64,000 bases of DNA from an uncultured delta proteobacterium (GCA_963790475.1 CAWBOS010000010.1:64001-128000), one strand, 5' to 3'; numbered from the stretch's first letter, positions 8,725 to 37,732 are shown. The notes: generated by a model from the sequence alone, not told the origin. Numbers and translations: made by a program.

Positions 8725-9135
8725 CTATTTCCGCTCAGTCGGATAATTCGCTCCATCCCATTCACGCCAGCCCCCTTTGAGGGCGTAGACCTTTTTGAAT
8801 CCCAGACCGATAAGTTTCTGTGCCACACTGGCACTAGTCGCCTCATCTTGTCAGGCGCAATAAAGAACGATAGTTTTTTCCTTAGAATATTTCTTCGCCC
8901 AGGATTTCACCTTGGATGGGTCCGGATCTTCCCGAACCGACCCTTTGATTTGCTTCACGCTCATTTTCCGGTCAAAGAAGGTCCGGACATCAATAACCAC
9001 CACCTCCGGATTCCCAAGCATTGATTTGAGTTTTTCCTTGCTGATGCGGGGAACATCCAGGGCGAAAGCCGTTACCACCCAGATCCCCAAAGCCATAAAG
9101 GCCATCACCATGCATACCATCGCCTTCCTTACCAT
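8725..9135 (-). CDS. Exported rhodanese-like selenoprotein (CAU motif), 136 aa with TGA 8851-8853 read as Sec
   Basis: Signal peptide and IDVR; LYCA-TGA-QDEATSASVAQKLIGLGFKKVYALKGGWREWDGANYPTERK completes the rhodanese fold; SECIS-like hairpin at 8820-8834. Confidence 0.85.
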
Positions 9136-9344
9136 CCCTTTGCCTGCCTTTCTTGATCGCCTGGAGGGCAACCTAAAATATGAGAAATAAGAGCATGGGT
9201 GCTTTTTAATGGAACACCCTTTTTTCTCCCAATGCATTTACTTTAATCACGATTTTTTTAAAAACAAGTTGTTAAAATATCCGGAATATGATTTCCTGAT
9301 ATTTTTAATGAAAGCTCACCTCTTTTTACTATTATCCTCTTAAC

Positions 9345-9866
9345 TTAAGAGGTTACCTTTGTTGGCTTGGCCCTTTTCTTTCGTTTGAGGGGGAGGCTTA
9401 CTTCATGAGATAAAATAAGGTGGGGGAGAGTACCCTCGGCACCCAGAATGGAAACCAACCTTTTCAGCCCTTTACTAACCTCCTTCAGTTCCCTTAGCGG
9501 TGTTTTTTCCAACCCCATCACCAATAAGCCCTGAGCCACTTCCGGGGCAGAGGCCACCAGTTTTTTCCCCTTTGGGGTCAATTCCACCCAGACAATCCGA
9601 CGGTCTTCCTCTGACCTGGTTTTTTTTATCAGGCCATGAGCTTCGAGGCGGTTGAGTATTCCGACCACGGTTGCCGGGTGAAGATACATCCGGCGGGCTA
9701 ATTCTGAAACCATCATAGGAGCGGTTTCTGCCAGGATCTTAATGGCCCAAAGCTGGGAGCTGGTAAGCCCGGTATTATGCTCGACCCGCTTGGAATATTC
9801 CTGGATCACCTGAAAGACCCTTCTTAAATCATCAATGGTATCGGCTATCAATTCCGACTGGGTCAT
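9345..9866 (-). CDS. MarR-family transcriptional regulator (copy 1)
   Basis: GLTxxQ, SELARRMYLHPATV and DRR...LT.KG winged-helix motifs. Confidence 0.92.
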   Translation of the reverse strand: MTQSELIADTIDDLRRVFQVIQEYSKRVEHNTGLTSSQLWAIKILAETAPMMVSELARRMYLHPATVVGILNRLEAHGLIKKTRSEEDRRIVWVELTPKGKKLVASAPEVAQGLLVMGLEKTPLRELKEVSKGLKRLVSILGAEGTLPHLILSHEVSLPLKRKKRAKPTKVTS

Positions 9867-15244: not shown

Positions 15245-15658
15245 GTGACAACAAGGTCCTGGTCATTTACTATGAATATCCTTTGAATATCCACAGCAGA
15301 AAATCCCTTACAGTTTGCGGTCGCTGTCGAAGGATACCAATTATTATCTCCTGGCTCAGTTATCTGGGTGGTCAAGATTCTTCCCTGGCTGGAGATAATT
15401 TTAGGAATAGCCCTGTTCAGCGGCATCAAAATTCGATATATGGCCGGCTTTGCCGTTGCCTTTCTCGCCTTTTTCATCGGAGTCATGTTGGTGACTTATC
15501 TCCGGGGCATTGAAGCCGATTGCGGTTGTTTCGGAATAGGAGAGCGAATCTCACCTTTTACGCTGGTCCGGGATACCCTTTTCATTCTACCGGCCTTATT
15601 TCTGGTTGTCCAACCCTGGCTGGAATTGCGTCGATGGTTAAGGGGGCAAGGGCGGTAA
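15245..15658 (+). pseudogene. MauE/DoxX-family membrane protein with a disrupted N-terminus
   Basis: NPLQFAVAVEGYQLL, LPWLEIILG and RGIEADCGCFG; first TM helix missing; in-frame TGA at 15284. Confidence 0.7.
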
Positions 15659-16519: not shown

Positions 16520-18349
16520 ATGACCGCCGAAAGAAAATGTCTTCTCGCACCCGGGACCATTCTCAATGACAAATGGATGATCATGGACCTCATCGGAAAA
16601 GGGGCCATGGGAGAGGTCTATCGAGCCCATCAATTAAACTTGCAGCGGGATGTGGCTATAAAGATCGTTTCCAGAGAATGGCTGCGAACAGCGGAAGAAG
16701 AGGGCCTGGAGATTGAACCCATTATTCAAAGGTTTCGCCGGGAATTTCAGGCCATGGCCCAGGTCCGACACCCCAATGCCCTTCAAATCTATGATTATGG
16801 GACCTGCTCAATTCTGAAAGACGAAAAAGAAGTGGACGTCGAATTCATTGTCATGGAGTATATCCCCGGGGCCACCTTACGATTCACCATGTCCGATGAG
16901 GGTTTTGAGCCGGATGAAAAACTGATAAAAGATTGGATAATAGAATATTTTTTTCCCGTGCTCGAAGGGGTTCAGGCCTTGCATACCCTGGGGATCGTCC
17001 ACCGGGACCTCAAGCCGGAAAATGTTCTCTTGGACGGAACTATTCCCAAGATTACTGATTTTGGACTGGCCCGTTCCACCCGCCTCAAACCCCTTTCCCA
17101 AACGGTAGATTCCCAGGGGACATTAACGTATATGCCTCCTGAACAATTTGTTGATTTCAAAAGAGTGGATCAGCGAGGCGACATCTTTTCTTTGGGAAGG
17201 ATTCTTTATGAGGCTATAGCCGGGAAAATCTCCAAAGAGACCATTCCCTTTAAAACAGTAAAGCTGGCCAATCCCAATACCCCGTTTCTTGAAAAGCTAG
17301 ACAAAATCATCCAATGGTCCACCGCTGAAGAACGGGAACAGCGTCTGGATTCGGTTGAAAAAATGGGCCAATTGCTTAAAGAAGCCATTCAAGAATTAGA
17401 AGCGGAATCAAATAAACCGGATATAACGGCTTTCCCGGCAGCCGGTCCCTGGTGGGCCCATCCCCAATGGATCTGGATTGGAATTGCCCTTGTTCTTGTT
17501 ACTGTTTTAGGAATGACCTTTTGGCACCTGTTTGGGAACCCCGGTCAGACAGACCGGTCGGCGAAGGAAGGAAAACCAGCACCACAAGCCGTTGAAAGTC
17601 CTCCCGCATCTTCTTCGGTCCAGGGATTGCCTAAATCTATAGTGGGGGAAGACGGAATGACTATGGTTTTGATCTCCGGAGGTTCTATGCCCGCGGTTTC
17701 CGGAGTGTCAAATGGGTCAATAAGAAGTGGGCAAATGAAACCCTTTTATATGGATGAGACTAAAGTAACCTTTCAGCAATATGTGGAATTTTTGAATATA
17801 GAAAAAAAGAATTTGAAGATTGAAAACGGGTTGCTCAAGAGCAAAGGGCAAGTCTGGTATCTAATTGGAGAGGCAAACGAGAATTATAATCAAATTATCT
17901 TTGAACATGGGCGTTTTCATGTTCGCGATCCCCAAAAAGCATCTCAACCGGTAGTTCGGGTAACCTGGGGTGGAGCTGCCGCCTATGCTAAATATTTTAG
18001 AAAACGTCTCCCCACCGAGCTGGAATGGGAATACGCCGCTTCTTTGAATAGACCCAAAGGGATTTCTCCATCTTCCGGGCCCTCCAATAAGGAAATAGAA
18101 ATTAAGGACCTATATGGAAAAATCAATGAATGGGCTATTCGGGAGATGGATTTCCAGGAAATGGGACGGACCGCTCTCACAAAAAAGCCTTCTCCAATAA
18201 TTTTCCTTGGGCTATCCACTTCTCAGGGCAAATTGCTAAGACGCCCTTCCTTTCCTTGGGAAGGACACTGGGATGTGGGGTTTCGTTGTGTTCTCGATAT
18301 AACGGAAAACGAGAAGGTCGAGAAAAAGGTGCTGACTGAGAAAAAGTGA
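16520..18349 (+). CDS. Hanks-type Ser/Thr kinase - TM - FGE-sulfatase (SUMF1)-like domain
   Basis: GKGAMGEV, VAIK, HRDLKPEN, DFG and GT..YMPPE; TM near aa 318-338; PVVRVTW, RLPTELEWEYAA and GFRCV. Confidence 0.9.
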   Translation: MTAERKCLLAPGTILNDKWMIMDLIGKGAMGEVYRAHQLNLQRDVAIKIVSREWLRTAEEEGLEIEPIIQRFRREFQAMAQVRHPNALQIYDYGTCSILKDEKEVDVEFIVMEYIPGATLRFTMSDEGFEPDEKLIKDWIIEYFFPVLEGVQALHTLGIVHRDLKPENVLLDGTIPKITDFGLARSTRLKPLSQTVDSQGTLTYMPPEQFVDFKRVDQRGDIFSLGRILYEAIAGKISKETIPFKTVKLANPNTPFLEKLDKIIQWSTAEEREQRLDSVEKMGQLLKEAIQELEAESNKPDITAFPAAGPWWAHPQWIWIGIALVLVTVLGMTFWHLFGNPGQTDRSAKEGKPAPQAVESPPASSSVQGLPKSIVGEDGMTMVLISGGSMPAVSGVSNGSIRSGQMKPFYMDETKVTFQQYVEFLNIEKKNLKIENGLLKSKGQVWYLIGEANENYNQIIFEHGRFHVRDPQKASQPVVRVTWGGAAAYAKYFRKRLPTELEWEYAASLNRPKGISPSSGPSNKEIEIKDLYGKINEWAIREMDFQEMGRTALTKKPSPIIFLGLSTSQGKLLRRPSFPWEGHWDVGFRCVLDITENEKVEKKVLTEKK

Positions 18350-18488
18350 CGGCCGAGAAAAAGGATGTCAAAAAAAGAGAAGGAGCCAACTATCCGGCTA
18401 AGGCTCCCTTGGGAGTAGTTCCCCAAGGAAACCAGCTTCCATCATTAAGGCGAAAGTTCGGTTGAGCTTTCCCGGAATAGTTTGGACA

Positions 18489-19196
18489 ATGGAATCATAC
18501 GCTATTACCCATCAAGGGTTAAAAAGAAAAGAAAACCAGGACCGATATTTTATGGGGGAATTGAATAACCATACGTTCCTCATGGCCGTGGCCGATGGGA
18601 TGGGGGGTGAAGCCGGAGGAGGATTGGCGGCTCAAATAGCCATAGAGGCTTTCGAAGATTTTAATCCCGGCCCGAGAAGCATTAAGACTCAACTCCTCAA
18701 AGTATTCCAGGCGGCTTCCCAAAGGATTGGCGAGGAAGTCCAAAAGGATCTTAAGTTAGAAGGAATGGGGACCACCCTGACTGCGGCCTATATAAAAAAC
18801 AGGACAACATACTGGTCCCATGTCGGCGACAGCCGGCTTTATCTCTGGCGGGCGGGACACCTGACTCAAGTGACCGAAGATCACACTTTCGTAAATAGCC
18901 TCGTAAAAGATGGGGTGATAACCCAAGGAGAGGCCGACGTCCATTCCATGCAAAATATTTTGCTTCACTGCATCGGCTGTGACCCACTGGAGATCAGTTC
19001 GGGCGGATTCAAGGTTTTCAAAGAAGATATAATTTTTCTTTCCACGGATGGACTTCATCACATGGTCCCCGGGGGGAAAATAGTTTCCATCCTAAGGAAG
19101 GACATCGGTATCAGGAAAAAGTTTGAGAAACTTATCCGGGTTGCTTTAAAGGCCGGTGGTCAGGATAATATTACTATAGCGGGCCTGACGATTTAA
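18489..19196 (+). CDS. PP2C/PPM-family Ser/Thr phosphatase
   Basis: RKENQD, VADGMGG, GMGTT, HVGDSRLY, STDGL and GGQDNIT. Confidence 0.92.
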   Translation: MESYAITHQGLKRKENQDRYFMGELNNHTFLMAVADGMGGEAGGGLAAQIAIEAFEDFNPGPRSIKTQLLKVFQAASQRIGEEVQKDLKLEGMGTTLTAAYIKNRTTYWSHVGDSRLYLWRAGHLTQVTEDHTFVNSLVKDGVITQGEADVHSMQNILLHCIGCDPLEISSGGFKVFKEDIIFLSTDGLHHMVPGGKIVSILRKDIGIRKKFEKLIRVALKAGGQDNITIAGLTI

Positions 19197-19318
19197 TTCC
19201 AAATCCTGTTGTTTCTAAATGCATTTCCCGTAGGAACCTCTTCCAAGAATAATGCAAATAGCCTCTGGTAGCTCTTTCTCTCTGATATGACGCAGTCTAA
19301 CTCCAGAATAACAAACAT

Positions 19319-19822
19319 TTATTGCCCACTGTATATTTTTTTCATCTCTTTTTTTATCCGGTCAATCGGAACACCCAGTTCATTCAATAAAAAAGCATGT
19401 ATCGCTTGCGCATCGCAGACGTTACAGTTGGATGCGTGGTCATCAAATTTACCAAATTTGCCCTGTTTGAGAAAGCAATAAGAAAGGTTCTTATGCCCCA
19501 TTTCTTCACAAAAGCAGTAACAGGTAAAATGAGCCAGAAGTTGTGGTTCTTTAACCGCGATCTTGTAAGCCACCTGAACAGAATCATTGATGTAGACGAA
19601 CTTCGGAAATTTATATTTCTCCCAATTCTCTCCCGCATATTTTTTGGCTACCAGGGCCTGAGATCTGGCGGTGAGTTCCTTGAGATTCATCTTGGCCAGG
19701 TTTTGAATTTCTTTTTCCTGATCCGATGCTAAAACGATAGGAACCGTAATAAGGAGCAACAAGGAAAGTAAGATGGTTTTTTTGATGGTTTTCATTTTCG
19801 AGTTCCCTCCTATTTTCACCAA
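19319..19822 (-). CDS. Exported PCYCGC-motif-like protein
   Basis: Signal peptide; TCYCFC...GHKNLSYCF...DDHASNCNVC pattern. Confidence 0.75.
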   Translation of the reverse strand: MVKIGGNSKMKTIKKTILLSLLLLITVPIVLASDQEKEIQNLAKMNLKELTARSQALVAKKYAGENWEKYKFPKFVYINDSVQVAYKIAVKEPQLLAHFTCYCFCEEMGHKNLSYCFLKQGKFGKFDDHASNCNVCDAQAIHAFLLNELGVPIDRIKKEMKKIYSGQ

Positions 19823-20868
19823 GGAAATTTAAAAAGCCAGTTTTCGCCACGGAACCAATGACCGACAACGATGGCCAGTAATTGGCTCAAAATAATAAAC
19901 GCGAAAGCCAGGTTAAGGATCAGCCTTTCCCTTACAAACCATTTGCCGCCCGGTAGCTTTGAGCGATCGAGCGCAGGGACGAGGACTAAGAAAAGTCCGA
20001 TAAATAAGGGCACAACTATGCCGCCGACCAAGGCCGAATGACTTACCATTTCCTGGATACCGACAAAATACCAGGGTGCTTTAGCCGGATTGGGTGGACG
20101 CAGAGGATCAGCCCTGCCCGACAGTGGGGCTTCAAGGAAAAACGCAAGAACGAGCAGAAAGGAAAGGGTCAGGAGGCCGACGGCCAGTTCCGCTTTAAAG
20201 AGTATCGGCGAAGAAGCTATTCTCTCAGGATCCGGTTCCTGGGAGGATGCCAAGCCCCCGGCTTTTCTGATACGCCAGAGATGCAGGGCAATCAGGAGTA
20301 CCCACAGCGCGGGGAGGAAGGCGACGTGCAGAGCAAAGGACCGGATAAGGGTATCGGTGCCGATTTCCTGGCCACCCAGGAGAAACCGTCGAAAAGAGGG
20401 ACCGATGATAGGGAAGTAGGAGGCAAGATTTGAACCCACTTTGATTGCCCAATAGGAAGTCTGGTCCCAGGGCAAGAGGTAGCCGGTATAATTGCTGGCC
20501 AGGATTAGAGTCAACAAGCCCAGCCCATAGACCCAATTCAGATAGCGCCCCTGATAGCTTCCGGTGAAAAAAACCCTGGTAAGGTGCAGGAAGCTAGCGA
20601 TCAGGAGGACATTGGCCGCCAGATAATGGAGGTTTCTCACCAGCCCGCCATAACGCAGAGTAGTCATGATGTGAATGGTCCGGTCATAGGCCACACTTTC
20701 AGAAGGAATGTAATAGAGCAGGAGTGTAACTCCGGATAAGAAAAGTAAAACAAGACAGGATAGGCAGATGATACCCAGACCGAGAGTCGTGATGGGTTGC
20801 AGGGTACGCACCCGAATCATCGGGGAATGGAGGTGTTTCAGAAAATTCATTCTCAACCTTTCCTTCAC
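19816..20868 (-). CDS. Cytochrome b (b6-like) fused to a subunit-IV segment of a Rieske/cytb complex
   Basis: Heme ligands RNLH...FLH and ALH...ALH; TGYLLPWDQ.SYWA; PNPAKAPWYF (PEWY variant). Confidence 0.9.
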   Translation of the reverse strand: MKERLRMNFLKHLHSPMIRVRTLQPITTLGLGIICLSCLVLLFLSGVTLLLYYIPSESVAYDRTIHIMTTLRYGGLVRNLHYLAANVLLIASFLHLTRVFFTGSYQGRYLNWVYGLGLLTLILASNYTGYLLPWDQTSYWAIKVGSNLASYFPIIGPSFRRFLLGGQEIGTDTLIRSFALHVAFLPALWVLLIALHLWRIRKAGGLASSQEPDPERIASSPILFKAELAVGLLTLSFLLVLAFFLEAPLSGRADPLRPPNPAKAPWYFVGIQEMVSHSALVGGIVVPLFIGLFLVLVPALDRSKLPGGKWFVRERLILNLAFAFIILSQLLAIVVGHWFRGENWLFKFPW

Positions 20869-21371
20869 GCCTCACCCCTTTTTGATCTAATAGGGACGGG
20901 TTCTTTTATCTCAAGCCAACTCGACCTCGTCAATTTTTCTCCTATATGCACCCATAGCCTGCCGTCGCGTTCAGTTACTTCGTGCCAGGGAAGCGGGTCT
21001 GTAGCCGGGCCTGAATAGACCTGGCCCAGCGGACCGAATTCGCTGCCGTGGCAGGGACAAAAGAACCCCTGGTCGACCACATTGAGAAGACAGCCCAAAT
21101 GGGTGCATTCCAGGCTGATGGCCCCGATCTTCCGGGAAGATCTGATGACGGCGATCTTGTGCTCCGGGAAAGGGGTCAGTGTCCCGGGCGCAAACCGGTC
21201 CAGCGAGGAGATCTGAACCCAACTGCCTGAAGAGAATTGGGAGGCTGCCGTCCAGACATTGCCGAAAATCCAAGTGAAGGCCGTCCCCACCGCCCCCAGG
21301 CCGGCGATGATCAGCCAGTTGAATAGAAATTTCCGCCGGCTAACGGGGCTCATAATCGGCACCTCGCTCAC
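20865..21371 (-). CDS. Rieske 2Fe-2S subunit
   Basis: SRRKFL Tat motif plus TM; CTHLGC and CPCHGS boxes; GPA. Confidence 0.93.
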   Translation of the reverse strand: MSEVPIMSPVSRRKFLFNWLIIAGLGAVGTAFTWIFGNVWTAASQFSSGSWVQISSLDRFAPGTLTPFPEHKIAVIRSSRKIGAISLECTHLGCLLNVVDQGFFCPCHGSEFGPLGQVYSGPATDPLPWHEVTERDGRLWVHIGEKLTRSSWLEIKEPVPIRSKRGEA

Positions 21372-23001
21372 TGGAAAGATTTCGGACCAGGCTAACCAGG
21401 CCCCAGATCGACTCCGGGCGGAGATTGTTAAGAAAGGGCCGCATCTCGGTTCCGGGAATCCCGTAAGTTATAGCGATGGCAATCCTCTCATCGCTGAGTG
21501 ATCTGAAGTAGGGATAATTGGTGAGGTCTCTTGGCCTGGGCAGATATTTCAGGTAGGCCGGTCCTTTTCCCTTGCCTTGAACACCGTGGCAGAGCGAACA
21601 TTTTTTCCTGAATGTAGAGAGGTTCTCTTCAGATGAAGGCAAAGTTTTTGGTCTGGGCGGAGGTGCAGTCATTACCTTAACCCTCCTTTCCGTTCTAATG
21701 AATACCTGGAAAAGAAGGTCAACCAAAGAATTGATGGACTCTTTTCCCAATAACTCCCCATAGGGCGGCATCGAGGTACCCGGAATGCCCTTGGTGATGC
21801 TTCCTATGATTCGCGTGTCCGGGACTGACTTGAAAAACAGGACGTTGTTGCGGAATGCTCGGGGAAAGTTGGCCAGGTTCGGCTCAATGATACCAAAGCC
21901 ATCACCCAGGGCGGCATGACAACGTTGGCAAAGCATCATGTAAGCATTTTTGGGGGTCCCTCTGTGAAAGTGGCTTTTTTCTTTCTGTTGAAGGACAAAG
22001 AGGAGCCCTTCCTCCTCTCTTTGGCTCATCGGGATTATCGGCATGATGGCCCCGGGGATTTCGATTCCTGGACTATGCAGGAAATTCCGGATATAACCCT
22101 TGGGCCGCATAAAGGCCATATAGGAAAGGTCCGGTCCGATCTGGCCATCGAACTCGCTGAACTTGTGGCAGGCCAGGCATTTCTTTTCCTTTAGCAACGC
22201 CTTTCCCTTTGGAACGGGTTTGGGCATACCTTCTTTCTCCAGCCGTTCCTGCTCTCTTTCCTTTAAAAGGCGCATCATCGGGGTTTCATAGTATGGTGCT
22301 TTCACTCGACTCTTTAAGAAATAGGAGAGGGATTTCACTTCTTCAGGAGAAAGAGCGAATTTCGGCATGATTGAGTTCTCAAGGATTGCTTTGGGATTTT
22401 CGATGGCTTTTCTGATCTGCACCAAACCCAGGAAGGATCCGGCATCACTAAGATCAGGGCCGTAGCGGCCACCCCTACCCCCGCCGCCGCTTGTGTGACA
22501 GGTATCACAGGCGGTTTTTGAGAACAGTTGGACCCCCTGCCAGGCTTTATCAGCTCCCCGTAGTGGTTTCAATTCATGGCATTGGTAACAACTGGCCTGG
22601 AGGTCTTCCCCGGCCAAGACTTTTCGGGCTTCATTACCCGTTCGGCCATGGGATATCTTGAGATCGGCAGCCATTCCTTCGCCCAAATGACAGGCCGTGC
22701 ATCCCAGGTCAACCATTGAATGGGGAGCGATATTCGGGTGGCTGCGCCCTGGTATAGGGGAATCCATTCGGACCGCGGCTCTACCCTCCGGGTGACACGT
22801 CCGGCAATGCTCTTGTTTCGGTGCTCCGCCGAGGTTGACGGTTATGTTGGCAATGTGGTGTGAACCAATCTTTTCATAGCGATAATAACGGCCCGACTGC
22901 TCCTCCCATCCCTTGTAGCTCCAAAGGATAAGAAGCCCCAGGGTCAAAGCTATTGCGATCATTAGGATAACGTTTATCAAAGATTCTAAACGTCTTATCA
23001 A
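21340..23001 (-). CDS. Membrane-anchored multiheme cytochrome c (7 CxxCH)
   Basis: CRTCH, CTACH, CYQCH, CDTCH, CLACH, CQRCH and CSLCH; N-terminal TM; GPDLS and MP class-I motifs. Confidence 0.9.
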   Translation of the reverse strand: MIRRLESLINVILMIAIALTLGLLILWSYKGWEEQSGRYYRYEKIGSHHIANITVNLGGAPKQEHCRTCHPEGRAAVRMDSPIPGRSHPNIAPHSMVDLGCTACHLGEGMAADLKISHGRTGNEARKVLAGEDLQASCYQCHELKPLRGADKAWQGVQLFSKTACDTCHTSGGGGRGGRYGPDLSDAGSFLGLVQIRKAIENPKAILENSIMPKFALSPEEVKSLSYFLKSRVKAPYYETPMMRLLKEREQERLEKEGMPKPVPKGKALLKEKKCLACHKFSEFDGQIGPDLSYMAFMRPKGYIRNFLHSPGIEIPGAIMPIIPMSQREEEGLLFVLQQKEKSHFHRGTPKNAYMMLCQRCHAALGDGFGIIEPNLANFPRAFRNNVLFFKSVPDTRIIGSITKGIPGTSMPPYGELLGKESINSLVDLLFQVFIRTERRVKVMTAPPPRPKTLPSSEENLSTFRKKCSLCHGVQGKGKGPAYLKYLPRPRDLTNYPYFRSLSDERIAIAITYGIPGTEMRPFLNNLRPESIWGLVSLVRNLSSERGADYEPR

Positions 23002-23068
23002 GATCTTCCTCTGCGGTACCCTTGAAGAAACCTCGGTTATTGATCAAGAACACGACCCGTGACTCATT

Positions 23069-23479
23069 CTATTTCCGCTCAGTCGGATAATTCGCCCCTT
23101 CCCATTCACGCCAGCCCCCTTTGAGGGCATAAACTTTTTTAAATCCCAGACTGATAAGCTTCTGTGCCACACTGGCACTGGTCGCCTCATCCAGTCAGGC
23201 ACAATAAAGGACAATGGTCTTTCCCTTGGAATACTTCTTCGCCCAGGATTTCACCTTAGTTGGATCAGGATCTTCCCGAACCGCCCCCTTGATTTGCTTC
23301 GTACTCATTTTCCGGTCAAAGAAGGTCCGGACATCAATAACCACCACATCCGGATTCCCAAGCATCGATTTGAGTTCTTCTTTGCTGATGCGGGGAACAT
23401 CCAGGGAGACAGCCGTAACCACCCAGATCCCCAACATCATAACGACCATTCCTATACTAACTATCACCTTTTTTGCCAA
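23069..23479 (-). CDS. Exported rhodanese-like selenoprotein copy 2, 136 aa with TGA 23195-23197 read as Sec
   Basis: LYCA-TGA-LDEATSASVAQKLISLGFKKVYALKGGWREWEGANYPTERK; identical SECIS-like hairpin at 23164-23178. Confidence 0.85.
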
Positions 23480-23631
23480 CTCTTCACCTGCCTTTCTTGA
23501 TCGCCTGGAGGGCAACCTAAAATATGAGAAATAAGAACATGGGCTCTCTTTAAATGAATACCAACCCTTCAAATCTGCTTCCTATGAACGCTTTCTTACA
23601 TTTTAAGATCATTTTTAATAAAAACAACTTT

Positions 23632-24150
23632 TTAAATATCCGGAATCCTTCTCCCCCTTTTTTTTCGATCGAGAGGGAGGCTAACTTCCTGAGATAAGAT
23701 AAGATGCGGAAGAGTACCCTCGGCGCCCAGAATGGAAACCAACCTTCTCAGACCTTTATTAACTTCCTTTAGTTCGCTTAACGGTGTCTTTTCCAACCCC
23801 ATGACCAATAAGCCCTGAGCCACTTCCGGGGCGGCGGCCACCAGCTTTTTCCCTTTTGAGGTCAATTGCACCCAGACAACACGCCGATCTTCCTTCGATC
23901 TGGTCCTCTTTATCAGGTCGTGAGACTCAAGCCGGTTGAGGATCCCGACTATGGTTGCCGGGTGAAGATACATACGGCGGGCCAATTCGGAAACTATCAT
24001 CGGAGCGGTTTCGGCCAGGACCTTAATGGTCCAAAGCTGGGGACTAGTCAAACCGGTGGCATGCTCCACCTTTTTGGAATATTCTTGAATAACCTGAAAG
24101 ACCCTTCTTAAATTATCAATGGCATCAGCTATTAATTCTGATTGGTTCAT
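23632..24150 (-). CDS. MarR-family transcriptional regulator (copy 2)
   Basis: Close paralogue of 9345-9866. Confidence 0.92.
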   Translation of the reverse strand: MNQSELIADAIDNLRRVFQVIQEYSKKVEHATGLTSPQLWTIKVLAETAPMIVSELARRMYLHPATIVGILNRLESHDLIKRTRSKEDRRVVWVQLTSKGKKLVAAAPEVAQGLLVMGLEKTPLSELKEVNKGLRRLVSILGAEGTLPHLILSQEVSLPLDRKKRGRRIPDI

Positions 24151-24282
24151 TGTTCACCCAAGAAATGAAAAAATTCTTGACATCACTTTTTGAATATATT
24201 AATTTGTATACCAATCATTTGTATATAAATCAATATTTTTTTAAAGTTATCTTTTCCCAACTGGGAAAGGAGGTGAACGAAA

Positions 24283-24879
24283 ATGATCTCCTTCAAGCAT
24301 TGGATGAAATTGATGGTAGTCCTTTTTATTCTGTCTTTTTTCTTATTTGTTTTCGGGTGGGGCTGCACAACTTATAAAGAAGCAGTGGCAAACCCTGTAA
24401 AAGTTACACCTGGTCCTATGGTTGTGTCTAACCCTCCGAAAGCCTTGGAAGATGAGATAGAAAAGGCCCTGAGAGAGGAAGAGGCCAAACGATTGAAAGA
24501 GGCAGCTGAAAATGCTCTTTTTGAATCCGAGGATGTCCATTTTGAATTTGATCAGGCAATCTTGTCAGAAACCGACAAGCGAATTTTAAATAAAAAAGCG
24601 AAATGGTTAAAAGATCATCGGGCGGCCAAAGCCATAATCGAAGGTCACTGCGATGAAAGAGGAAGTGCAGAATATAACCTCGCTCTGGGTCAGAGAAGGG
24701 CCGATGCGGCCATGAATTACCTAACTTCTCTGGGCATCAATGCCAACCGGATTTCAACGATCAGTTACGGCAAGGAAAAACCCTTAGACCCAAGATCCAC
24801 AGAGGAGGCTTGGGCCAAGAATCGTCGGGCCCATTTTGAATTGAAAATAGAGATAAACGAACTTCCACCCAAGGCTTAA
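24283..24879 (+). CDS. pal: Peptidoglycan-associated lipoprotein, copy 2
   Basis: Lipobox GWGC; OmpA-like domain nearly identical to copy 1. Confidence 0.9.
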   Translation: MISFKHWMKLMVVLFILSFFLFVFGWGCTTYKEAVANPVKVTPGPMVVSNPPKALEDEIEKALREEEAKRLKEAAENALFESEDVHFEFDQAILSETDKRILNKKAKWLKDHRAAKAIIEGHCDERGSAEYNLALGQRRADAAMNYLTSLGINANRISTISYGKEKPLDPRSTEEAWAKNRRAHFELKIEINELPPKA

Positions 24880-25055
24880 AGAGGAAACATAGTATGTTGA
24901 TTTTGCCTGAAGGGTCCAGGCCTTCAAATTCCCGGTAAGAAAGCCATTAAACCACGGTTTCACAGATGTGGTCGAATGCCAACCGTTATGATAAATTGCA
25001 TTTTTTTATAAAAAAAATGAAAAAGTAATAAACTTTTTTTATCGCTCACTCGGGT

Positions 25056-25090
25056 TGGCCGAGAGACCACTGAATTCTCCCGGCCATTTT
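25056..25090 (+). terminator. Probable intrinsic terminator, homologous to 11059
   Basis: TGGCCG...CGGCCA hairpin followed by TTTT. Confidence 0.5.
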
Positions 25091-25280
25091 ATTATAGAGT
25101 TGAGCACAATGCGATCAATTGTCAGTTTCAAATATCCATGGAGGAATTTCTGAAGGATGTCGTTTTGTTGTTCCTACTTGATATTTTGGATAATAGGCCT
25201 GATATTATTGAAAGTCCCAGTTTTTGTTATTGAGAATATATCCGGAACATCTGATCTTTAAAGGAAATGCCTTTCCTGAG

Positions 25281-31277: not shown

Positions 31278-31388
31278 GGAAATAAAAGGAGTTGTACCCT
31301 TGACAGTGGTCTTCGTTGGTGTTAGCTTATATCAGATTATGGGTAATTGACCCATAATAATTAACAAAATAAGAAAATGGAGGTTGCA

Positions 31389-31778
31389 ATGAAAAAAGGT
31401 TTATTTTTGTTAATGATGTTGACCTTAATAGCCGGGACGGCTTGGGGAAAAAATTATGAAGTGACCAAAAAGGCAGATGATTACACCGTAAAAGTTGAAA
31501 TAGATAAAAATCCGCCTATCGTTGGCAATAACAACATGGCCATTACTATTCAAGATGCTTCCGGTAAAAACATTACCGACGCCAAAGTGAAAGTGGGATA
31601 CTCCATGCCACCCATGTCCGGGATGCCGGCGGCGAACTACAAGACCGACGCTGCCCTACAAGGGAATGAATACAAGACCAAGGTGAATTTTTCCATGGCC
31701 GGAAGTTGGAACGTCGAGGTTCAAATAACTGAGCCCTGGAAGGTTAAAAAGGTTAAACTCAATGTGGATGTCAAATAA
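31389..31778 (+). CDS. FixH/YtkA-like exported protein associated with heavy-metal efflux
   Basis: Signal peptide; NPPIVGNN, YSMPPMSGMP and FSMAGSW. Confidence 0.78.
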   Translation: MKKGLFLLMMLTLIAGTAWGKNYEVTKKADDYTVKVEIDKNPPIVGNNNMAITIQDASGKNITDAKVKVGYSMPPMSGMPAANYKTDAALQGNEYKTKVNFSMAGSWNVEVQITEPWKVKKVKLNVDVK

Positions 31779-33177
31779 AGATAATCCAAAAATTAGAAAT
31801 CAAAAAAATCACTTCAAGTCATTCCGGCGAAAGCCGGAATCCAGTTTTCCAATGTACCTGAAAGTCTCCTGGACCCCGGTTTTCACCGGGGTGACAACTT
31901 TTTTTGGGACCATCAACTATAAGAAAACCGCCCTCTTTTTTCTTGCCTTTTTGTGGAGTACATCGGCCATTGCCTCGGATTTGAGACTCCGGGACCTGAT
32001 CCAGGAGGTCATGAAAAATAGCCCGGAAATTCAGGCGGCCCAGGCCGGGGTAAATGTCGCTCAATACAAAATCCCTCAAGCCGGCGCCCTGCCCGACCCC
32101 ATGGTTATGGTCGGCTACCAGAACGATGGATACAGTAACTATACCTTCGGAGAATCCAATTTCGCTTATTATATGTTCTCGGCCAGCCAGATGGTGCCTT
32201 TTTGGGGAAAGCGGGACTTAAAGGGTGAGATGGCCACCCGGGAAGCGGAAAGCCTTAAGGCGTCCTCGAAAAATACCATCCTTAAGACCGTTACCAAGGT
32301 CAAAGAACTCTATTTTGATCTTTTGCTGGCCTATAAGACCAAAGAACAGATTGAGGACAAAACCGATTTGTTTGCCCGGATTGAGGACGCTGCTCTGGCT
32401 CGGTATTCATCGGGCATGGGCCCCCAGCAGGAAGTGCTCATGGCCCAGACCGAGAAATACATGCTCCGGGAAAAAGATGAGATGACGAATCAAAAAATTC
32501 AGGCGGCCGAGGGTATGCTGAACACAACTCTCGGGAGAGAGGTCGATGCCCCTTTGGGCCGTCCCCAGGTTCCGGCCTATGCCCCTTATCCGTACAAGCT
32601 CGAAGAGCTTCTGAAGATGGCCAAGGAAAATTCCCCGGAAATCCAGTCCAAGGAAAAGATGATCAAAGGGGCAGAAGCCAAGGTCCGGATGGCGGAAAGA
32701 GAATACTATCCTGATTTTACCCTGGGGGCCAATCTCTATAAAACAGGCGGGCCTTTTACAGACATGTGGAGTGTGACCGCTCAGATCAACATCCCGCTCT
32801 ATTATGAAAGGAAGCAGAAGCAGGGGGTACTGGAAGCCAAGGCCGCCCTTTCTCAGAGTAAACAGGAACGCCTGGCTACCGAGAATATGCTGGCTTCGAA
32901 TCTGAGGGATAGTTACTCCATGATTAAATCAGCCGAGCGGTTGATGGAACTCTATAAGGAAGGCTTGATCCCCAAGACCGTGCAGGACTTTCAACTGGCC
33001 CTCTCGGGATATACCGTGGGCAAAGTGGAGGCCATAACCGTCATCTCCAGACTGAAGGCCCTTCTGGATTTCGAGCTGTTATACTGGGGGCAATTTACCG
33101 AAAGGGAAAAGGCCATGGCCCGGGTTGAAGCGATTGCCGGGATTACGGATTTGATGATGGAGGATAAAAAGAATTGA
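31768..33177 (+). CDS. TolC/CusC-family outer-membrane efflux protein
   Basis: NSPEI, ALPDPM, SQMVPFWGKR and YYPDF repeats; precedes cusB-cusA; REP-like insert in the N-terminal region. Confidence 0.88.
   Translation: MSNKDNPKIRNQKNHFKSFRRKPESSFPMYLKVSWTPVFTGVTTFFGTINYKKTALFFLAFLWSTSAIASDLRLRDLIQEVMKNSPEIQAAQAGVNVAQYKIPQAGALPDPMVMVGYQNDGYSNYTFGESNFAYYMFSASQMVPFWGKRDLKGEMATREAESLKASSKNTILKTVTKVKELYFDLLLAYKTKEQIEDKTDLFARIEDAALARYSSGMGPQQEVLMAQTEKYMLREKDEMTNQKIQAAEGMLNTTLGREVDAPLGRPQVPAYAPYPYKLEELLKMAKENSPEIQSKEKMIKGAEAKVRMAEREYYPDFTLGANLYKTGGPFTDMWSVTAQINIPLYYERKQKQGVLEAKAALSQSKQERLATENMLASNLRDSYSMIKSAERLMELYKEGLIPKTVQDFQLALSGYTVGKVEAITVISRLKALLDFELLYWGQFTEREKAMARVEAIAGITDLMMEDKKN
31818..31895. 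repeat. REP-like palindromic element in frame within tolC
   Basis: GTCATTCCGGCGAAAGCCGGAATCCAGT identical to 3274-3301; second arm CTGGACCCCGGTTTTCACCGGGGTGAC. Confidence 0.85.
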
Positions 33178-34349
33178 AAATATCAAGGATGGTCATCGGC
33201 TTAACATTAGGGATCGGACTTGGTCTTTCCGCCTGGCCGCTTCTTGCCCAACCCCATCAGCACGGGGCAATGTCGGAAATGACAAAGGCCCCTGCAAAAA
33301 AACCTGCCCCACAAAAGGAACCGGTTCAGGAGGAGGTCCCCACCGTAGAAATCCCCAAGGATAAACAACAGCTCATCGGTCTAAATACCACCTCGGTAGC
33401 CATAAGGCCCTTACAAAAGGTCATTCGGACCGTAGGCCGCATCGAATATGATGAGAGAAAAATGGCCACGGTCAATACCAAGTATGAGGGCTGGATCGAG
33501 AAACTGCGGGTCAACGCCACCGGGAGCTACGTGAAGAAGGGAGAGCCCCTGGCCGAAATCTACAGCCCGGAACTTTTGGCTACCCAACGGGAATATCTGA
33601 ATGCCCTTAAATGGAAAAATTCCACCAAAAAGGATAGCGAACTCGGTGCCCTGTTGATCAAAGATGCGGAAACTATTCTGGAGGCAGCCAAACAGCGTCT
33701 GAAACTTTGGGACATCACCGAAGAACAAATCAAAAAAGTCGAGGGAACCGGTCAGCCGATCAAGACCTTGACCCTTTACAGCCCGGTCAGCGGGTATGTG
33801 ACCCAAAAAACAGCCATCCAGGGGATGAAGGTCATGCCTGGTGATAAGCTCTTTGATATTGTCGATCTTTCATCGGTTTGGGTGCTGGCCGACATCTATG
33901 AATACGAACTTCCGGTCGTCAAATTGGGGGCGCCGGCCGTCATCAGTCTAAGCTACTTCCCGGGCAAGGAATTTCTTTCTAAAATAGATTATATCTATCC
34001 AACCCTGGCCGGTGAAACCAGGACCGCCAAAGTTAGGTTTACCTTGCCCAATCCGGGGGGTCAGCTCAAACCCCAGATGTTCACCGATGTGACCTTAAAG
34101 ATCAATCTCGGTAAAAAGCTCGTTGTTCCTGAGGATGCGGTTATTGATACCGGAACAAGGCAGATTGTTTATGTGGATAAAGGGGATGGAAATTTTGAGC
34201 CCCGAGAGGTCTCTGTCGGCCTCAAGACCGATCAGATGGTCGAGGTGACAAGAGGATTACGGGTTGGAGAAAAAGTGGTTTCTTCAGCAAATTTCCTGAT
34301 TGATTCAGAAGCGAAATTAAAAGGGGTTGCTCCAAGGACGAACAAATAA
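33174..34349 (+). CDS. cusB: RND periplasmic adaptor, CusB-like
   Basis: GWIEKL, YSPELL, LKPQMF, AVIDTG and ANFLIDSE; His/Met-rich N-terminus. Confidence 0.88.
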   Translation: MKISRMVIGLTLGIGLGLSAWPLLAQPHQHGAMSEMTKAPAKKPAPQKEPVQEEVPTVEIPKDKQQLIGLNTTSVAIRPLQKVIRTVGRIEYDERKMATVNTKYEGWIEKLRVNATGSYVKKGEPLAEIYSPELLATQREYLNALKWKNSTKKDSELGALLIKDAETILEAAKQRLKLWDITEEQIKKVEGTGQPIKTLTLYSPVSGYVTQKTAIQGMKVMPGDKLFDIVDLSSVWVLADIYEYELPVVKLGAPAVISLSYFPGKEFLSKIDYIYPTLAGETRTAKVRFTLPNPGGQLKPQMFTDVTLKINLGKKLVVPEDAVIDTGTRQIVYVDKGDGNFEPREVSVGLKTDQMVEVTRGLRVGEKVVSSANFLIDSEAKLKGVAPRTNK

Positions 34350-34355
34350 ATCATG

Positions 34356-34454
34356 GGTAAAAGGTTTAAGGTTTGAGGTGTAAGGTGAGAATACCTCAGA
34401 ACCGGCTTTCCTTAAAGCTTTTAACATTAAACTTTAAACCGTAGACCTTATACC
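34356..34454. repeat. Inverted heptamer tandem-repeat array between cusB and cusA
   Basis: GGTAAAA GGTTTAA GGTTTGA GGTGTAA GGTGAGA ... with an inverted arm ending TTAAACC GTAGACC TTATACC. Confidence 0.75.
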
Positions 34455-34468
34455 GGTTTCATAATCTT

Positions 34469-37400
34469 ATGATCGCCAAAATTATTGAATACAGCGCCCG
34501 GAATAAATTTATCATTTTTTTGTTGATGTTTTTTTTGGGGATCTGGGGGTACCTTTCCCTTATAAACACCCCCCTGGATGCCCTCCCCGATCTCAGTGAT
34601 ACCCAGGTGATTATCTATACCGAATGGCCGGGAAGAAGCCCGGACCTGGTTGAAGACCAGATCACTTATCCCATTACTTCAACCTTATTGGCCGCTCCCA
34701 AAGTGCAGGCGGTTAGAGGTTTTTCCTATCTGGGCAGTTCTTTTATCTACGTCATCTTTGAAGAGGGGACCGATATCTATTGGGCTCGAAGCCGGATCCT
34801 GGAGTACCTCCAGGCCGTAAAAAACAAGCTCCCGGCCAATATCAACCCGGTCCTCGGACCCGATGCCACCAGCCTGGGCTGGGGGTTCTCCTATGCCGTT
34901 GTGGATGAGACCGGCAAGTTGGACCTGGCCCAGTTGCGTTCCCTCCAGGACTGGAATCTAAAGCTGGCGATTGAAAGTGTCCCCGGGGTTTCCCAGGTGG
35001 CCAGCCTGGGCGGGTTTGTCAAACAATATCAGATCACCCTGGACCCCAACCGTCTTTCCGCTTTTAACATCCCCATTACCAAAGTCATGGAAGCCGTCCG
35101 CCGCAGCAACCTGGACGTAGAAGGGCGGGTCATCGAGTTCTCCGGGGTGGAGTACATGGTCCGCGGACGGGGATATATCAAAAGTCTGGAAGACTTAAGA
35201 AATATTTCTTTGGGCACTAATGGCAATGGGACCCCAATTTACTTGAAGGACGTGGCCGGGATCCAACTCGGGCCGGAGATCCGCCGGGGGGTGGCCGAAC
35301 TGGATGGAAAAGGGGAGGTGGCCTCCGGAATCGTCGTGGTCCGGTTCGGTGAGAATGTTTTGAAGGTCATCGACCGGGTCAAGGAAAAAATAAAAAAAGA
35401 TATCGAACCCAGCCTGCCCAAAGGGGTGAAGATCATCACCACCTATGACCGGTCAGATCTGATTCATCGTTCCATTGATACTTTGAAAGACGAGATCATC
35501 AAACTCACCATTGCCGTCAGCGTGGTCTGCCTCGTCTTTTTATTTCACATCCCCAGTGCCCTGGTGATCATTCTGACCCTGCCTTTGGCCATTATCATTT
35601 CCTTTATCCTCATGGTCCATCTGAAGGTTACTTCCAATGTCATGAGCCTGAGCGGGATTGCCATTGCCATCGGAGCCATGGTGGATGCCTCGATCATCAT
35701 GGTGGAAAATGCCCATAAAAAGTTGGAAGAGTGGGAGGAAGCGAAACGACTGAGGGGAGATGGGAGCGGGGAGGAGGGGGAAGTCCTGGATGCTCATCAA
35801 TCCGCACTCGCAAATATGAGCAGGATTGATGTCATTATTCATGCGGCACAGGAAGTAGGGCCGTCCCTTTTCTTTTCCCTGCTGGTCATCATGGTCGGCT
35901 TCCTGCCGGTATTCACCTTGCAGGCCCAGGCCGGCAGGCTCTTCAAGCCCCTGGCCTATACCAAAACCTTTGCCATGCTTTTTGCTTCCTTTTTGGCCAT
36001 TACCCTCACCCCGGTTTTGATGACCTTATTTATCCGGGGGAAAATAAGACCGGAAGAAAAAAATCCCATCAGCAAGGTCCTTCATAAGCTCTATGAGCCG
36101 GTGGCGCGGCTTGCTCTGCGGTTTAAAAAAATAGTCATAATTCTAGCCGTCCTTATTCTGGCCTCCACCATCTATCCCTTTATGAAAATCGGTTCGGAAT
36201 TTATGCCCCCCCTTTATGAGGGGACCCTGTTTTATATGCCGGTGACCGTACCGGCCGCTTCTATCTCCGTAGCTACAGACCTGCTGAAAATGCAGGACCA
36301 GATTTTGATGAAAATTCCGGAAGTAACCCAGGTCTTCGGCAAAGCCGGCCGGGCTGAGACGGCTACCGATCCGGCGCCCCTGGAGATGTTTGAAACAGTG
36401 GTCAACCTTAAACCCGAGTCTCAGTGGCGCAAGGGGATGACGGTCGATAAACTCAAAGATGAAATGAACGACGCCCTGACCATTCCCGGAGTGGCCAATT
36501 CCTTCACCATGCCCATCAAGGCCAGAATCGATATGCTGGCTACGGGGATTAGAACACCGGTGGGCATCAAGGTCCTGGGTCCGAAACTGGAGGAACTGGA
36601 ACGGATCGGCCTGGAACTGGAACATCACATCAAGGACATTCCCGGGACCCGCAGTGTGTATGCCGAGAGGATGACTACCGGATATTTTCTGGATGTAATT
36701 GTTAATCGGCAGGAAGCCGCCCGGTACGGGTTGGCTGTGGAAGATATTCAGGAAGTGGTTGAGACTGCCATCGGCGGCATGAATATCACCACCACTGTGG
36801 AAGGCCGGGAACGCTATCCGGTGAACATTCGCTATGCCCGGGAACTGCGGGGAAATATCGAACAGATCAAGAGAATCCTGGTGCCGGTTACGATGACCAG
36901 TCCCCAAAATGCCCAGACCGGTTCCAGTATGGGCTCCAGTGGGGCGGGGGTACAATCCTTGAGTGTCCCTCTGGGTGAAGTGGCGGACATAAAAATCATT
37001 AAGGGGCCGACGGCCATCAAGAGCGAAGAAGGGCTTTTAAGCCTCTATGTTTTTGTAGACTTCAGCGGCAGAGATGTGGGGGGATACGTGCAAGAGGCCA
37101 AGAAGAAGGTGGCCTCTTTGAAGATCCCCACAGGGTATCGCCTGGAATGGAGCGGGGAATATGAATATCTGCTCAAAACCGAGGAAAGATTAAAATTAGT
37201 CATCCCCTTGACCCTCTTGATCATTTTTGTCTTGATTTTTTTTAACACCAAATCGGTGACCAAAACCCTTATCGTCTTGCTGGCTGTCCCTTTTTCCTTA
37301 GTGGGCTCCTTCTGGCTCCTTTATATCCTTAATTATAATCTTAGTATCGCGGTCTGGGTGGGGATTATCGCCCTGGCCGGTCTGGATGCCGAGACCGGAG

Positions 37401-37732
37401 TGGTCATGCTGCTTTATCTGGAACTGGCTCATGAAAGGTGGAAGAAAGAAGGCCGTTTGAACGGAATCTCCGATCTGAAGGAGGCCATCATGTTCGGGGC
37501 CGTGAAACGGATACGTCCCAAGATCATGACCGTCAGTGTTATCCTGGCCGGTCTGGTTCCTATTATGTTCAGTCACGGTACCGGATCGGATGTGATGAAG
37601 CGTATCGCTGCCCCTATGGTGGGAGGGGTGATCACCTCCATGATTATGGAACTGGTTATCTATCCGACGATCTATCTGATCTGGAAGGGGAGGGAATTTA
37701 AACTCCTGGAAAGTCCTGCAAAAAAATCCTGA
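34469..37732 (+). CDS. cusA: CusA-type Cu(I)/Ag(I) RND efflux pump
   Basis: DALPDLSDTQV, AIAIGAMVDA, EFMPPLYEG...YMP, DPAPLEMFET and RIDML (Met triad). Confidence 0.95.
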   Translation: MIAKIIEYSARNKFIIFLLMFFLGIWGYLSLINTPLDALPDLSDTQVIIYTEWPGRSPDLVEDQITYPITSTLLAAPKVQAVRGFSYLGSSFIYVIFEEGTDIYWARSRILEYLQAVKNKLPANINPVLGPDATSLGWGFSYAVVDETGKLDLAQLRSLQDWNLKLAIESVPGVSQVASLGGFVKQYQITLDPNRLSAFNIPITKVMEAVRRSNLDVEGRVIEFSGVEYMVRGRGYIKSLEDLRNISLGTNGNGTPIYLKDVAGIQLGPEIRRGVAELDGKGEVASGIVVVRFGENVLKVIDRVKEKIKKDIEPSLPKGVKIITTYDRSDLIHRSIDTLKDEIIKLTIAVSVVCLVFLFHIPSALVIILTLPLAIIISFILMVHLKVTSNVMSLSGIAIAIGAMVDASIIMVENAHKKLEEWEEAKRLRGDGSGEEGEVLDAHQSALANMSRIDVIIHAAQEVGPSLFFSLLVIMVGFLPVFTLQAQAGRLFKPLAYTKTFAMLFASFLAITLTPVLMTLFIRGKIRPEEKNPISKVLHKLYEPVARLALRFKKIVIILAVLILASTIYPFMKIGSEFMPPLYEGTLFYMPVTVPAASISVATDLLKMQDQILMKIPEVTQVFGKAGRAETATDPAPLEMFETVVNLKPESQWRKGMTVDKLKDEMNDALTIPGVANSFTMPIKARIDMLATGIRTPVGIKVLGPKLEELERIGLELEHHIKDIPGTRSVYAERMTTGYFLDVIVNRQEAARYGLAVEDIQEVVETAIGGMNITTTVEGRERYPVNIRYARELRGNIEQIKRILVPVTMTSPQNAQTGSSMGSSGAGVQSLSVPLGEVADIKIIKGPTAIKSEEGLLSLYVFVDFSGRDVGGYVQEAKKKVASLKIPTGYRLEWSGEYEYLLKTEERLKLVIPLTLLIIFVLIFFNTKSVTKTLIVLLAVPFSLVGSFWLLYILNYNLSIAVWVGIIALAGLDAETGVVMLLYLELAHERWKKEGRLNGISDLKEAIMFGAVKRIRPKIMTVSVILAGLVPIMFSHGTGSDVMKRIAAPMVGGVITSMIMELVIYPTIYLIWKGREFKLLESPAKKS

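Follow-up and report, generated by a model that had tools for sequence, protein, structure and literature searches.

A cytochrome c–Rieske–cytochrome b–CYCXC gene cluster among heavy-metal efflux genes of an uncultured delta proteobacterium and its candidate role in copper stress

APWY is among the six major patterns of the cytochrome b Qo site, and it defines a clade of Rieske/cytochrome b complexes that includes delta-proteobacteria (Kao & Hunte 2014, PMC4122944). In the passages of that paper that concern the clade, a Geobacter metallireducens p-cresol methylhydroxylase cluster is given as an example, all members are stated to be uncharacterized, and reverse operation is proposed, with electrons taken from the high-potential side. 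The Geobacter sulfurreducens cluster extHIJKLMNOPQS (Cbc6), as its genes are described in the relevant passages of PMC5877670 and PMC6148476, encodes a rhodanese-like lipoprotein, a porin, a selenocysteine (Sec)-containing pentaheme cytochrome, 10- and 12-heme cytochromes, the Rieske protein ExtO, the cytochrome b ExtP, the subunit-IV-like ExtQ, and ExtS. Here we analyze a locus with an APWY cytochrome b in a 64,000-nucleotide stretch from an uncultured delta proteobacterium (GCA_963790475.1, CAWBOS010000010.1:64001-128000), which we call the window. Six genes encode a MarR-family regulator, a Sec rhodanese, a heptaheme cytochrome c, a Rieske protein, a cytochrome b, and a Cys-rich CYCXC (PCYCGC) protein. 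They had been proposed, from the DNA of the window, to form an undescribed periplasmic sulfur/selenium or oxidative-stress electron transfer unit (the original prediction). We found no characterized system of the same composition, although the ext cluster already joins a rhodanese, multiheme cytochromes, and Rieske/cytochrome b proteins. A search of the open literature, outside subscription journals and supplements, returned no title or abstract on a Rieske/cytochrome b complex tied to copper efflux or on a heme-based anaerobic cuprous oxidase.

By sequence comparison, the conserved unit is not the six-gene module but four genes, in the order cytochrome c, Rieske, cytochrome b, CYCXC (hereafter the core), and its recurrent setting is heavy-metal efflux, mostly of the copper type, rather than sulfur or selenium metabolism. 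The rhodanese is, by the same comparisons, a lineage-specific addition to a copper island and not a defining subunit.

The four-gene core and its conservation

All six genes are co-oriented on the minus strand between positions 19319 and 24150, each where it had been placed, and Pfam and NCBIfam matches agree with the families assigned to them (Table 1). The last four, described as overlapping, are tightly packed: overlaps occur at the cytochrome c/Rieske and Rieske/cytochrome b junctions, but the cytochrome b/CYCXC junction has a 7-nucleotide (nt) overlap only if counted from a TTG start, and a 20-nt gap from ATG 19795. The latter, used by orthologues, is probably the true start and gives a protein of 158 amino acids (aa). 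Export signals and membrane anchors were read directly from the sequences.

The cytochrome c matches the Pfam families Cytochrome_C7, Cytochrome_CBB3, and Cytochrom_C. Its seven CxxCH motifs are invariant in eight orthologues, as are H65, H88, H94, H118, M212, M320, M411, and M520. The Rieske translation contains the binding boxes CTHLGC and CPCHGS, with their disulfide cysteines, and the twin-arginine motif RRKF. In cytochrome b, the heme-ligand residues H81, H95, H181, and H196, the residue C38, and the APWY motif (A264-Y267) are invariant in nine orthologues. APWY had been regarded as atypical; it is a major Qo pattern that marks a named clade, as set out above for PMC4122944. Among NCBIfam models, ExtP and ExtQ come nearest to cytochrome b, but its scores of 209.6 and 80 bits, respectively, fall short of their cut-offs (290 and 150). 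On these features, the locus encodes a predicted oxidoreductase, a Rieske/cytochrome b (bc-type) complex of the APWY clade. The same genome holds a second, distant Rieske - cytochrome b - multiheme cytochrome cluster (G000:C10:1426116-1430071) whose cytochrome b is 34-37% identical; it has no CYCXC gene, and RND genes are not nearby.

Searching 401 genomes of the phylum with cytochrome b returned orthologues with 54% identity or more in nine genomes other than that of the window. Carriers of the core belong to family f1 (G199, G360), family f37 (G203, at two places, G388, G109, G340, and G075), and family f101 (G381). The six window proteins were compared by tblastn with the flanks of core loci, of which L005 and L006 came from a scan of genome contigs. 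Gene order within the core is identical in 10 further genome-derived loci. An alignment of eight cytochromes, used to scan metagenomes, yielded 73 loci with cytochrome c identities of 38-81%. Of the 22 that have at least 2300 bp of downstream sequence, 19 have CYCXC after cytochrome b; L155, L156, and L182 do not.

The rhodanese does not share this conservation. MarR and the rhodanese stand together beside the core only in family f1 (L006, L008, L040, and L041, with L005 carrying the rhodanese and no MarR). Outside f1, none of the five assessable genome loci (L042, L044, L046, L047, and L048) has an upstream rhodanese; L043 and L045, which reach contig ends, were excluded. Of the 62 metagenome loci in which 600 bp or more of upstream sequence is available, one has a rhodanese there (L120, 81% identical). 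Rhodanese-core adjacency is kept in the f1 loci L005, L006, L040, L041, and L120 and in the window itself, and in f1 the rhodanese occupies the place that a YtkA-like gene has in the largest other group of loci. Homologous clusters generally lack the rhodanese, which is what the original prediction had itself named as speaking against its module.

Some core loci carry additional genes. Extra monoheme cytochrome c genes occur 3' of the core in L044, L045, L128, and L167; downstream of the core of L126, a monoheme cytochrome c gene is followed by a second, divergent PCYCGC gene (L126:5915-6274). Downstream of L043, the second core of G203, are a Pkinase gene and an FGE-sulfatase gene.

Heavy-metal context and possible functions of the core

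Metal efflux genes recur in the core's surroundings. Neighboring genes, typed by Pfam and NCBIfam scans, encode CusA/CzcA-family resistance-nodulation-division (RND) pumps, CusB-like adaptors, and outer membrane efflux proteins (OEP). The metal genes as a whole are arranged in at least four architectures, including a same-strand CusA - YtkA-like - core array and a divergent OEP-CusB-CusA array. YtkA-like genes of one family lie directly before cytochrome c in 8 loci, and CopB is immediately upstream of the core in L167 and L170. Cu-type P1B ATPases over the TIGR01511 cut-off are found directly upstream in L148 and downstream in L128; a similar ATPase with YHS/HMBD domains, recognized by the Pfam scan only, is downstream in L165. 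HMA proteins (L127, L170, L172) and cation diffusion facilitator (CDF) transporters (L165, L187) are also encoded near the core. Of the 40 metagenome loci whose upstream sequence reaches 1500 bp or more, 21 have RND genes on that side (13 on the same strand, 8 divergent). RND genes accompany 7 of 10 genome core loci versus 0 of 11 control Rieske/cytochrome b loci from the same phylum that have no CYCXC gene. Beside the core loci, no sulfur-metabolism genes recur, nor does a terminal reductase or oxidase.

In the window, a YtkA-Cus operon lies 7 kb beyond marR. Its RND pump scores 1106.5 bits with TIGR00914 (cut-off 701), and its YtkA-like protein has the Met-rich stretch MPPMSGMP. YtkA/CtaK is cited as delivering copper to CuA in the relevant passage of PMC13068155. 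In L005 (85% identity), YtkA-OEP-CusB is directly divergent from the rhodanese-core genes, with YtkA and OEP 77% and 79% identical to those of the window (31377-33177). The window's operon is probably a functional neighbor of the bc cluster.

From this context we infer, with roughly even confidence, that the core is a periplasmic redox module of the copper-stress response carried in heavy-metal, chiefly copper-type, islands. In such a module the menaquinone pool would be linked via cytochrome b, the Rieske cluster, and the seven hemes to a copper- or thiol-bearing site on CYCXC. The direction we favor, taken from the proposal for APWY complexes in PMC4122944, would have periplasmic Cu(I) oxidized and electrons returned to the quinone pool. 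On this view the module would parallel the multicopper oxidases CueO/PcoA while being independent of oxygen.

The nature of the CYCXC protein bears directly on this proposal. Residues invariant in 27 orthologues are C92, Y93, C94, C96, M99, G100, H101, C107, D118, H120, C124, and C127. Cys, His, and Met are typical soft-metal ligands. Forms with Sec occur in 7 of 30 loci of the family; in these, U takes the place of the first cysteine in the C-terminal CxxC. The AlphaFold2 model is helical (pLDDT 92.7). It has no match in the PDB by Foldseek at E <= 0.001, a wide VIA-align search gave no clear match (best Z 4.7), and an ESM Atlas search returned PCYCGC clusters only. A complex prediction for cytochrome c residues 45-553 with CYCXC residues 30-158 scored 0.30 against a mark of 0.32 and weighs neither way. 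PF13798 occurs in 42 of the 401 genomes, and the best 30 loci comprise 6 core and 24 non-core loci. A tree sets the bc-linked proteins apart as one group with a long branch (support 100/99). The group is rare, with 8 representative clusters at E <= 1e-30 versus 1224 family-level matches at E <= 0.001. A PCYCGC lipoprotein is listed with no assigned function in the relevant part of PMC13068155. CYCXC could provide a copper site or a dithiol redox site, or could be a maturation helper.

Several observations weigh against the copper assignment. Eighteen of the same 40 metagenome loci have no RND gene anywhere on the locus, and some of these carry MacB-type ABC, cytochrome P460, or regulator genes instead. 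The ATPase in L137 best fits the Cd/Zn type. The RND pumps are typed only as CusA/CzcA family, by a model blind to copper versus zinc/cobalt, and because neither the CusB nor the CzcB model reaches its cut-off, the window's RND operon is typed by family and not by metal. The metagenome loci are mutually related, so the counts overstate independence. PF07732 (N-terminal multicopper oxidase) is lacking in G000, G203, and G388 and present in G199 and G381; across these five core-bearing genomes there is no clean complementarity between multicopper oxidase and core, and the comparison is not decisive. Finally, 11 of the 24 non-core PCYCGC loci adjoin cytochrome c biogenesis genes (8 with TPR and ResB, 3 with TPR and redoxin), so the fourth gene of the core could encode a maturation helper and not a catalytic site.

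The last point leads to an alternative that we consider unlikely, in which the complex is an ordinary respiratory quinol:cytochrome c reductase, CYCXC is a cytochrome c maturation or thiol-redox helper, and the metal genes are shared accessory-island cargo. Non-core PCYCGC genes recur in an array of RnfB-like FeS protein - PCYCGC - TPR (CcmH/CycH-like) - ResB (L094, L099, L102, L105, L114-L117) and in an HtrA - PCYCGC - TPR - redoxin array (L100, L106, L112), and both suggest that the family takes part in cytochrome c biogenesis by System II. Other non-core loci include ones beside DsbD_TM or DUF1573. A VIA-align match of CYCXC to CcmH (2hl7_A; Z 3.5, rmsd 3.9 over 69 residues, rank 8) would fit a helper role but is at noise level. 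Patchiness of the core within family f1 would be expected of cargo as well. However, the bc-linked proteins belong to the separate long-branch group and are not of the ResB-linked kind. Furthermore, the metal linkage appears in several architectures and is absent from the 11 control bc loci, and an ordinary respiratory reductase is not what the lack of a recurring terminal reductase or oxidase beside the core would suggest.

If the copper link is accepted, the electrons could still run the other way. Transfer from quinol to Cu(II) is thermodynamically downhill, judging from known potentials, and Cu(I) is the form pumped by Cus and CopA. Quinol electrons might reduce periplasmic Cu(II) to Cu(I), or might repair copper-oxidized cysteines via CYCXC. 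The genomic context is identical evidence for this forward direction, and periplasmic c-type cytochrome assembly is reported as a target of copper (PMC4600104). Nevertheless we think the forward direction quite improbable: reverse operation is what PMC4122944 puts forward for APWY complexes, albeit as a proposal only, disulfide reduction from the Rieske/heme c side seems energetically unfavorable, and additional periplasmic Cu(I) would presumably be hazardous.

The most specific form of the copper-stress proposal, which we regard as speculative and on balance doubtful, is that the core is an oxygen-independent periplasmic cuprous oxidase feeding menaquinone. Cu(I) would be held by CYCXC after delivery by YtkA-like proteins or, in the window's lineage, by the Sec rhodanese. 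Its electrons would pass along the heme chain, and a reverse Q cycle would drive them into menaquinone. If true, this would be the first function for the PCYCGC family and for the APWY bc clade. Overall, the joining of APWY complexes and PCYCGC proteins, both widespread, in one conserved operon among copper-export genes offers a concrete, testable lead.

The selenocysteine rhodanese, its putative regulator, and flanking features

The rhodanese gene probably starts at TTG 23479, as judged from orthologue starts. With UGA read as Sec, translation proceeds to a TAG stop and yields a 167-aa protein that contains the motif LYCAU; the NF041203 match spans residues 43-167, across the UGA. In each of the 31 LYCAU rhodanese genes compared, all five pairs of the hairpin that follows are intact; in L082 and L087, two pairs are changed on both sides. 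Folded alone, the window's copy has z -1.95, and an Rfam scan of 18500-25500 at E <= 1 gave zero matches, with no curated Sec insertion sequence (SECIS) or riboswitch model among them. The window's 6.3-Mb genome encodes selB (390.6 bits, cut-off 242) and tRNA-Sec (74.3 bits, gathering score 47). The selB gene is on the same contig, ~6.7 kb beyond the end of the window (G000:C10:134728-136614). Sec decoding of the rhodanese, part of the original prediction, is well supported by these signals. In comparison with the solved structure 6mxv_A, an ungapped alignment sets U126 on the catalytic Cys, whereas a gapped alignment sets C124 there. The loop following U126 is acidic (ULDEAT).

LYCAU rhodaneses as a family are not tied to bc genes. 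NF041203 is over cut-off in 73 of the 401 genomes, nearly all matches having one in-frame TGA, and the contexts are unrelated. Within 1.5 kb of the best 30 loci there is no MarR, cytochrome c, or OmpA homologue; neighbors vary and include DUF547 (4), amidase (4), and others. Three loci connect the family with metal export: in L079, from the window's genus, the rhodanese is followed by YtkA and then OEP, and in L076 and L086 it is beside CPC-type P1B ATPases. Among 13 sampled genomes of family f1, 9 have the rhodanese and only 2 the orthologous core.

The MarR protein has no NCBIfam equivalog over its cut-off. Its gene precedes that of the rhodanese in the window, L006, L008, L040, and L041 and is missing in L005. 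Alignment and a pattern search revealed a palindrome, ATTGGTATAC(C/A)AAT (a 21-nt pattern), with 2 matches in the window, one per marR copy, versus 0 expected from shuffles. The predicted 67-nt spacing between rhodanese and cytochrome c was confirmed, as was the expectation of no terminator there: the scan found no terminator-like site, and the spacer folds no better than shuffles (z 0.09). Overall, the promoter and terminator scans were at shuffle level (3 promoter-like sites versus 5.5 expected, 8 terminator-like sites versus 7.4 expected), and the terminator/promoter scan 3' of the second rhodanese copy was likewise uninformative. The spacer is conserved across 7 family-f1 loci and was duplicated together with the rhodanese. 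Because the spacer has no terminator and is conserved, and the palindrome is found only upstream of the marR copies, transcription reading through from the marR promoter into the bc genes is plausible. In the f1 lineage the Sec rhodanese gene, with marR upstream of it in most loci, was placed before the operon and is probably read through into it.

A TGA and a hairpin are present in the second marR-rhodanese copy as well. The two copies are alignable as DNA through the spacer and ~45 nt of cytochrome c coding sequence, beyond which they diverge. Beside the second copy is a divergent OmpA-family gene (10351-11007), an arrangement that mirrors 23068-24879. From these alignments, the pair is a partial segmental duplicate that copies the cluster's upstream end and is kept intact with no bc genes. 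We considered it as proof of an independent marR-rhodanese module and dropped this idea, since the duplicate still bears the cytochrome c stub; for the same reason, it shows only that the pair can be retained apart from bc genes. The neighboring ORF (open reading frame) at 7899-8564 was considered as an MsrP-like gene and rejected, the NCBIfam matches being only weak ones to the sulfite-dehydrogenase family.

These results bear on the function first proposed, a periplasmic sulfur/selenium electron transfer unit acting on persulfide, polysulfide, thiosulfate, or selenite, with the Sec rhodanese as a catalytic head wired to quinone via the bc complex. The ext cluster is its nearest precedent, joining a rhodanese-like lipoprotein, multiheme cytochromes, and Rieske/cytochrome b proteins, and the window's cytochrome b is nearest to ExtP/ExtQ. 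Such a unit would also account for the rhodanese-core adjacency in six f1 loci across a conserved, terminator-free spacer. One class-I domain of the cytochrome c exceeds the SoxX cut-off (77 vs 61 bits), and L182, a distant core (46% cytochrome c identity) with no CYCXC gene, has a 314-aa tandem rhodanese downstream (L182:11672-12616; ExtH model weak, 54 bits). We nonetheless consider the proposal very unlikely. An upstream rhodanese is found in only one of 62 metagenome loci and in none of the five assessable genome loci outside f1, in G203 and G388 the LYCAU rhodaneses are on different contigs from the cores, and even in f1 the rhodanese mostly occurs apart from the orthologous core. The window itself retains an intact marR-rhodanese pair with no bc genes. 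The ExtP, ExtQ, and ExtS models are all below cut-off, and the rhodanese has no ExtH match. The acidic ULDEAT loop seems poorly suited to anionic sulfur or selenium substrates, and sulfur-metabolism genes do not recur beside the core. Under the copper-stress reading, the picture of the Sec rhodanese changes: it would be a lineage-specific, putatively MarR-controlled addition to a metal island and not a subunit of a sulfur-respiring complex.

Table 1. Features of the window discussed in the text, with positions counted from its first nucleotide
Feature	Position	Strand	Evidence or remark
Sulfite-oxidase-family molybdopterin-domain ORF	7899-8564		convergent with second rhodanese copy
Second marR + Sec-rhodanese copy, cytochrome c gene stub downstream	8725..9866	-	protein identity 85% and 83% to first
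MauE-like ORF	15368-15658
Ser/Thr kinase fused to FGE-sulfatase-like domain, plus PP2C phosphatase	16520-19196		convergent with CYCXC gene
Exported Cys-rich CYCXC/PCYCGC protein	19319..19822	-	PF13798 46.8 bits vs cut-off 25
Fused cytochrome b, 350 aa, b6-like and subunit-IV-like parts, APWY	19816..20868	-	PF00033 126.6 bits, PF00032 21.4 bits
Twin-arginine translocation (Tat) Rieske [2Fe-2S] protein	20865..21371	-	PF00355 39.9 bits vs cut-off 20.3
Membrane-anchored heptaheme cytochrome c, 553 aa	21340..23001	-	3 N-terminal hemes, then 4 class-I domains
Rhodanese-to-cytochrome c spacer	23002..23067	-	67 nt between rhodanese stop and cytochrome c start
Exported/anchored single-domain Sec rhodanese, LYCAU family	23068..23572	-	NF041203 168.1 bits vs cut-off 115
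SECIS-type hairpin GUGCC-loop-GGCAC, 5 bp	23164..23178	-	19 nt past UGA
In-frame UGA read as Sec, U126	23195..23197	-	table-11 ORF ends here
MarR-family regulator, 172 aa, no cysteine	23632..24150	-	PF01047, 54.4 bits
MarR-operator-like palindrome, core ATTGGTATACAAAT, marR promoter region	24200..24220	-	block conserved upstream of marR, 6 aligned loci
Histidine kinase gene	30025-31053		precedes YtkA-Cus operon
YtkA-like - OEP - CusB-like - CusA/CzcA RND operon	31377..37732	+	Pfam YtkA, OEP, HlyD_D23, ACR_tran

Comparison with known systems

The rhodanese agrees with the LYCAU family NF041203 in scoring above its cut-off, in having UGA at the family's U position, and in its conserved hairpin. 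It differs in its pairing with MarR and its placement before a bc operon, which are seen only in the window's family (0 of the 30 best other loci). CYCXC likewise passes the gathering score of PF13798 and conserves the CYCxC, GH, C, H, and CxxC positions of the PCYCGC family, but it falls short of the equivalog NF041379 (60.1 vs 90 bits), and the bc-linked proteins stand as a separate group.

With the APWY clade the complex shares the invariant APWY motif, the four heme-ligand His residues, and a Rieske partner. The heptaheme c subunit, the CYCXC gene, and the metal-efflux context are features of the window's locus that do not appear in the account of the clade in PMC4122944, as far as its relevant passages go.

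The Geobacter ext cluster resembles the locus in combining a rhodanese with multiheme cytochromes and Rieske/cytochrome b proteins, and it too includes a selenoprotein, as described in the relevant part of PMC5877670. The parts are distributed differently, however. ExtH is a 49-kDa lipoprotein, whereas the window's LYCAU protein has 167 aa, and the Sec of the ext cluster sits in the pentaheme ExtKL. The window rhodanese has no NF040901 (ExtH) match at E <= 0.01, and the ExtP, ExtQ, and ExtS equivalog scores in the window are below cut-off (ExtS 34.5 vs 100). Among the six genes and the scanned flanking ORFs there is no ExtI-like porin, no further multiheme cytochrome, and no ExtS counterpart, the only outer-membrane-type matches in these flanks being OmpA-domain proteins and one OEP. 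A CYCXC gene is not mentioned in the passages of PMC5877670 and PMC6148476 that describe the cluster. Judged from these comparisons, the ext cluster is a loose precedent and not the same system.

The multicopper oxidases CueO/PcoA, which act with Cus, CopA, and CopB, are comparable in genomic position: like them, the core is found beside CopB, Cus-type RND pumps, Cu-type ATPases, and copper-chaperone-like proteins. There is no homology between the two. In the core, heme and Fe-S centers would replace the copper centers of these oxidases, and quinone would replace O2 as the electron sink.

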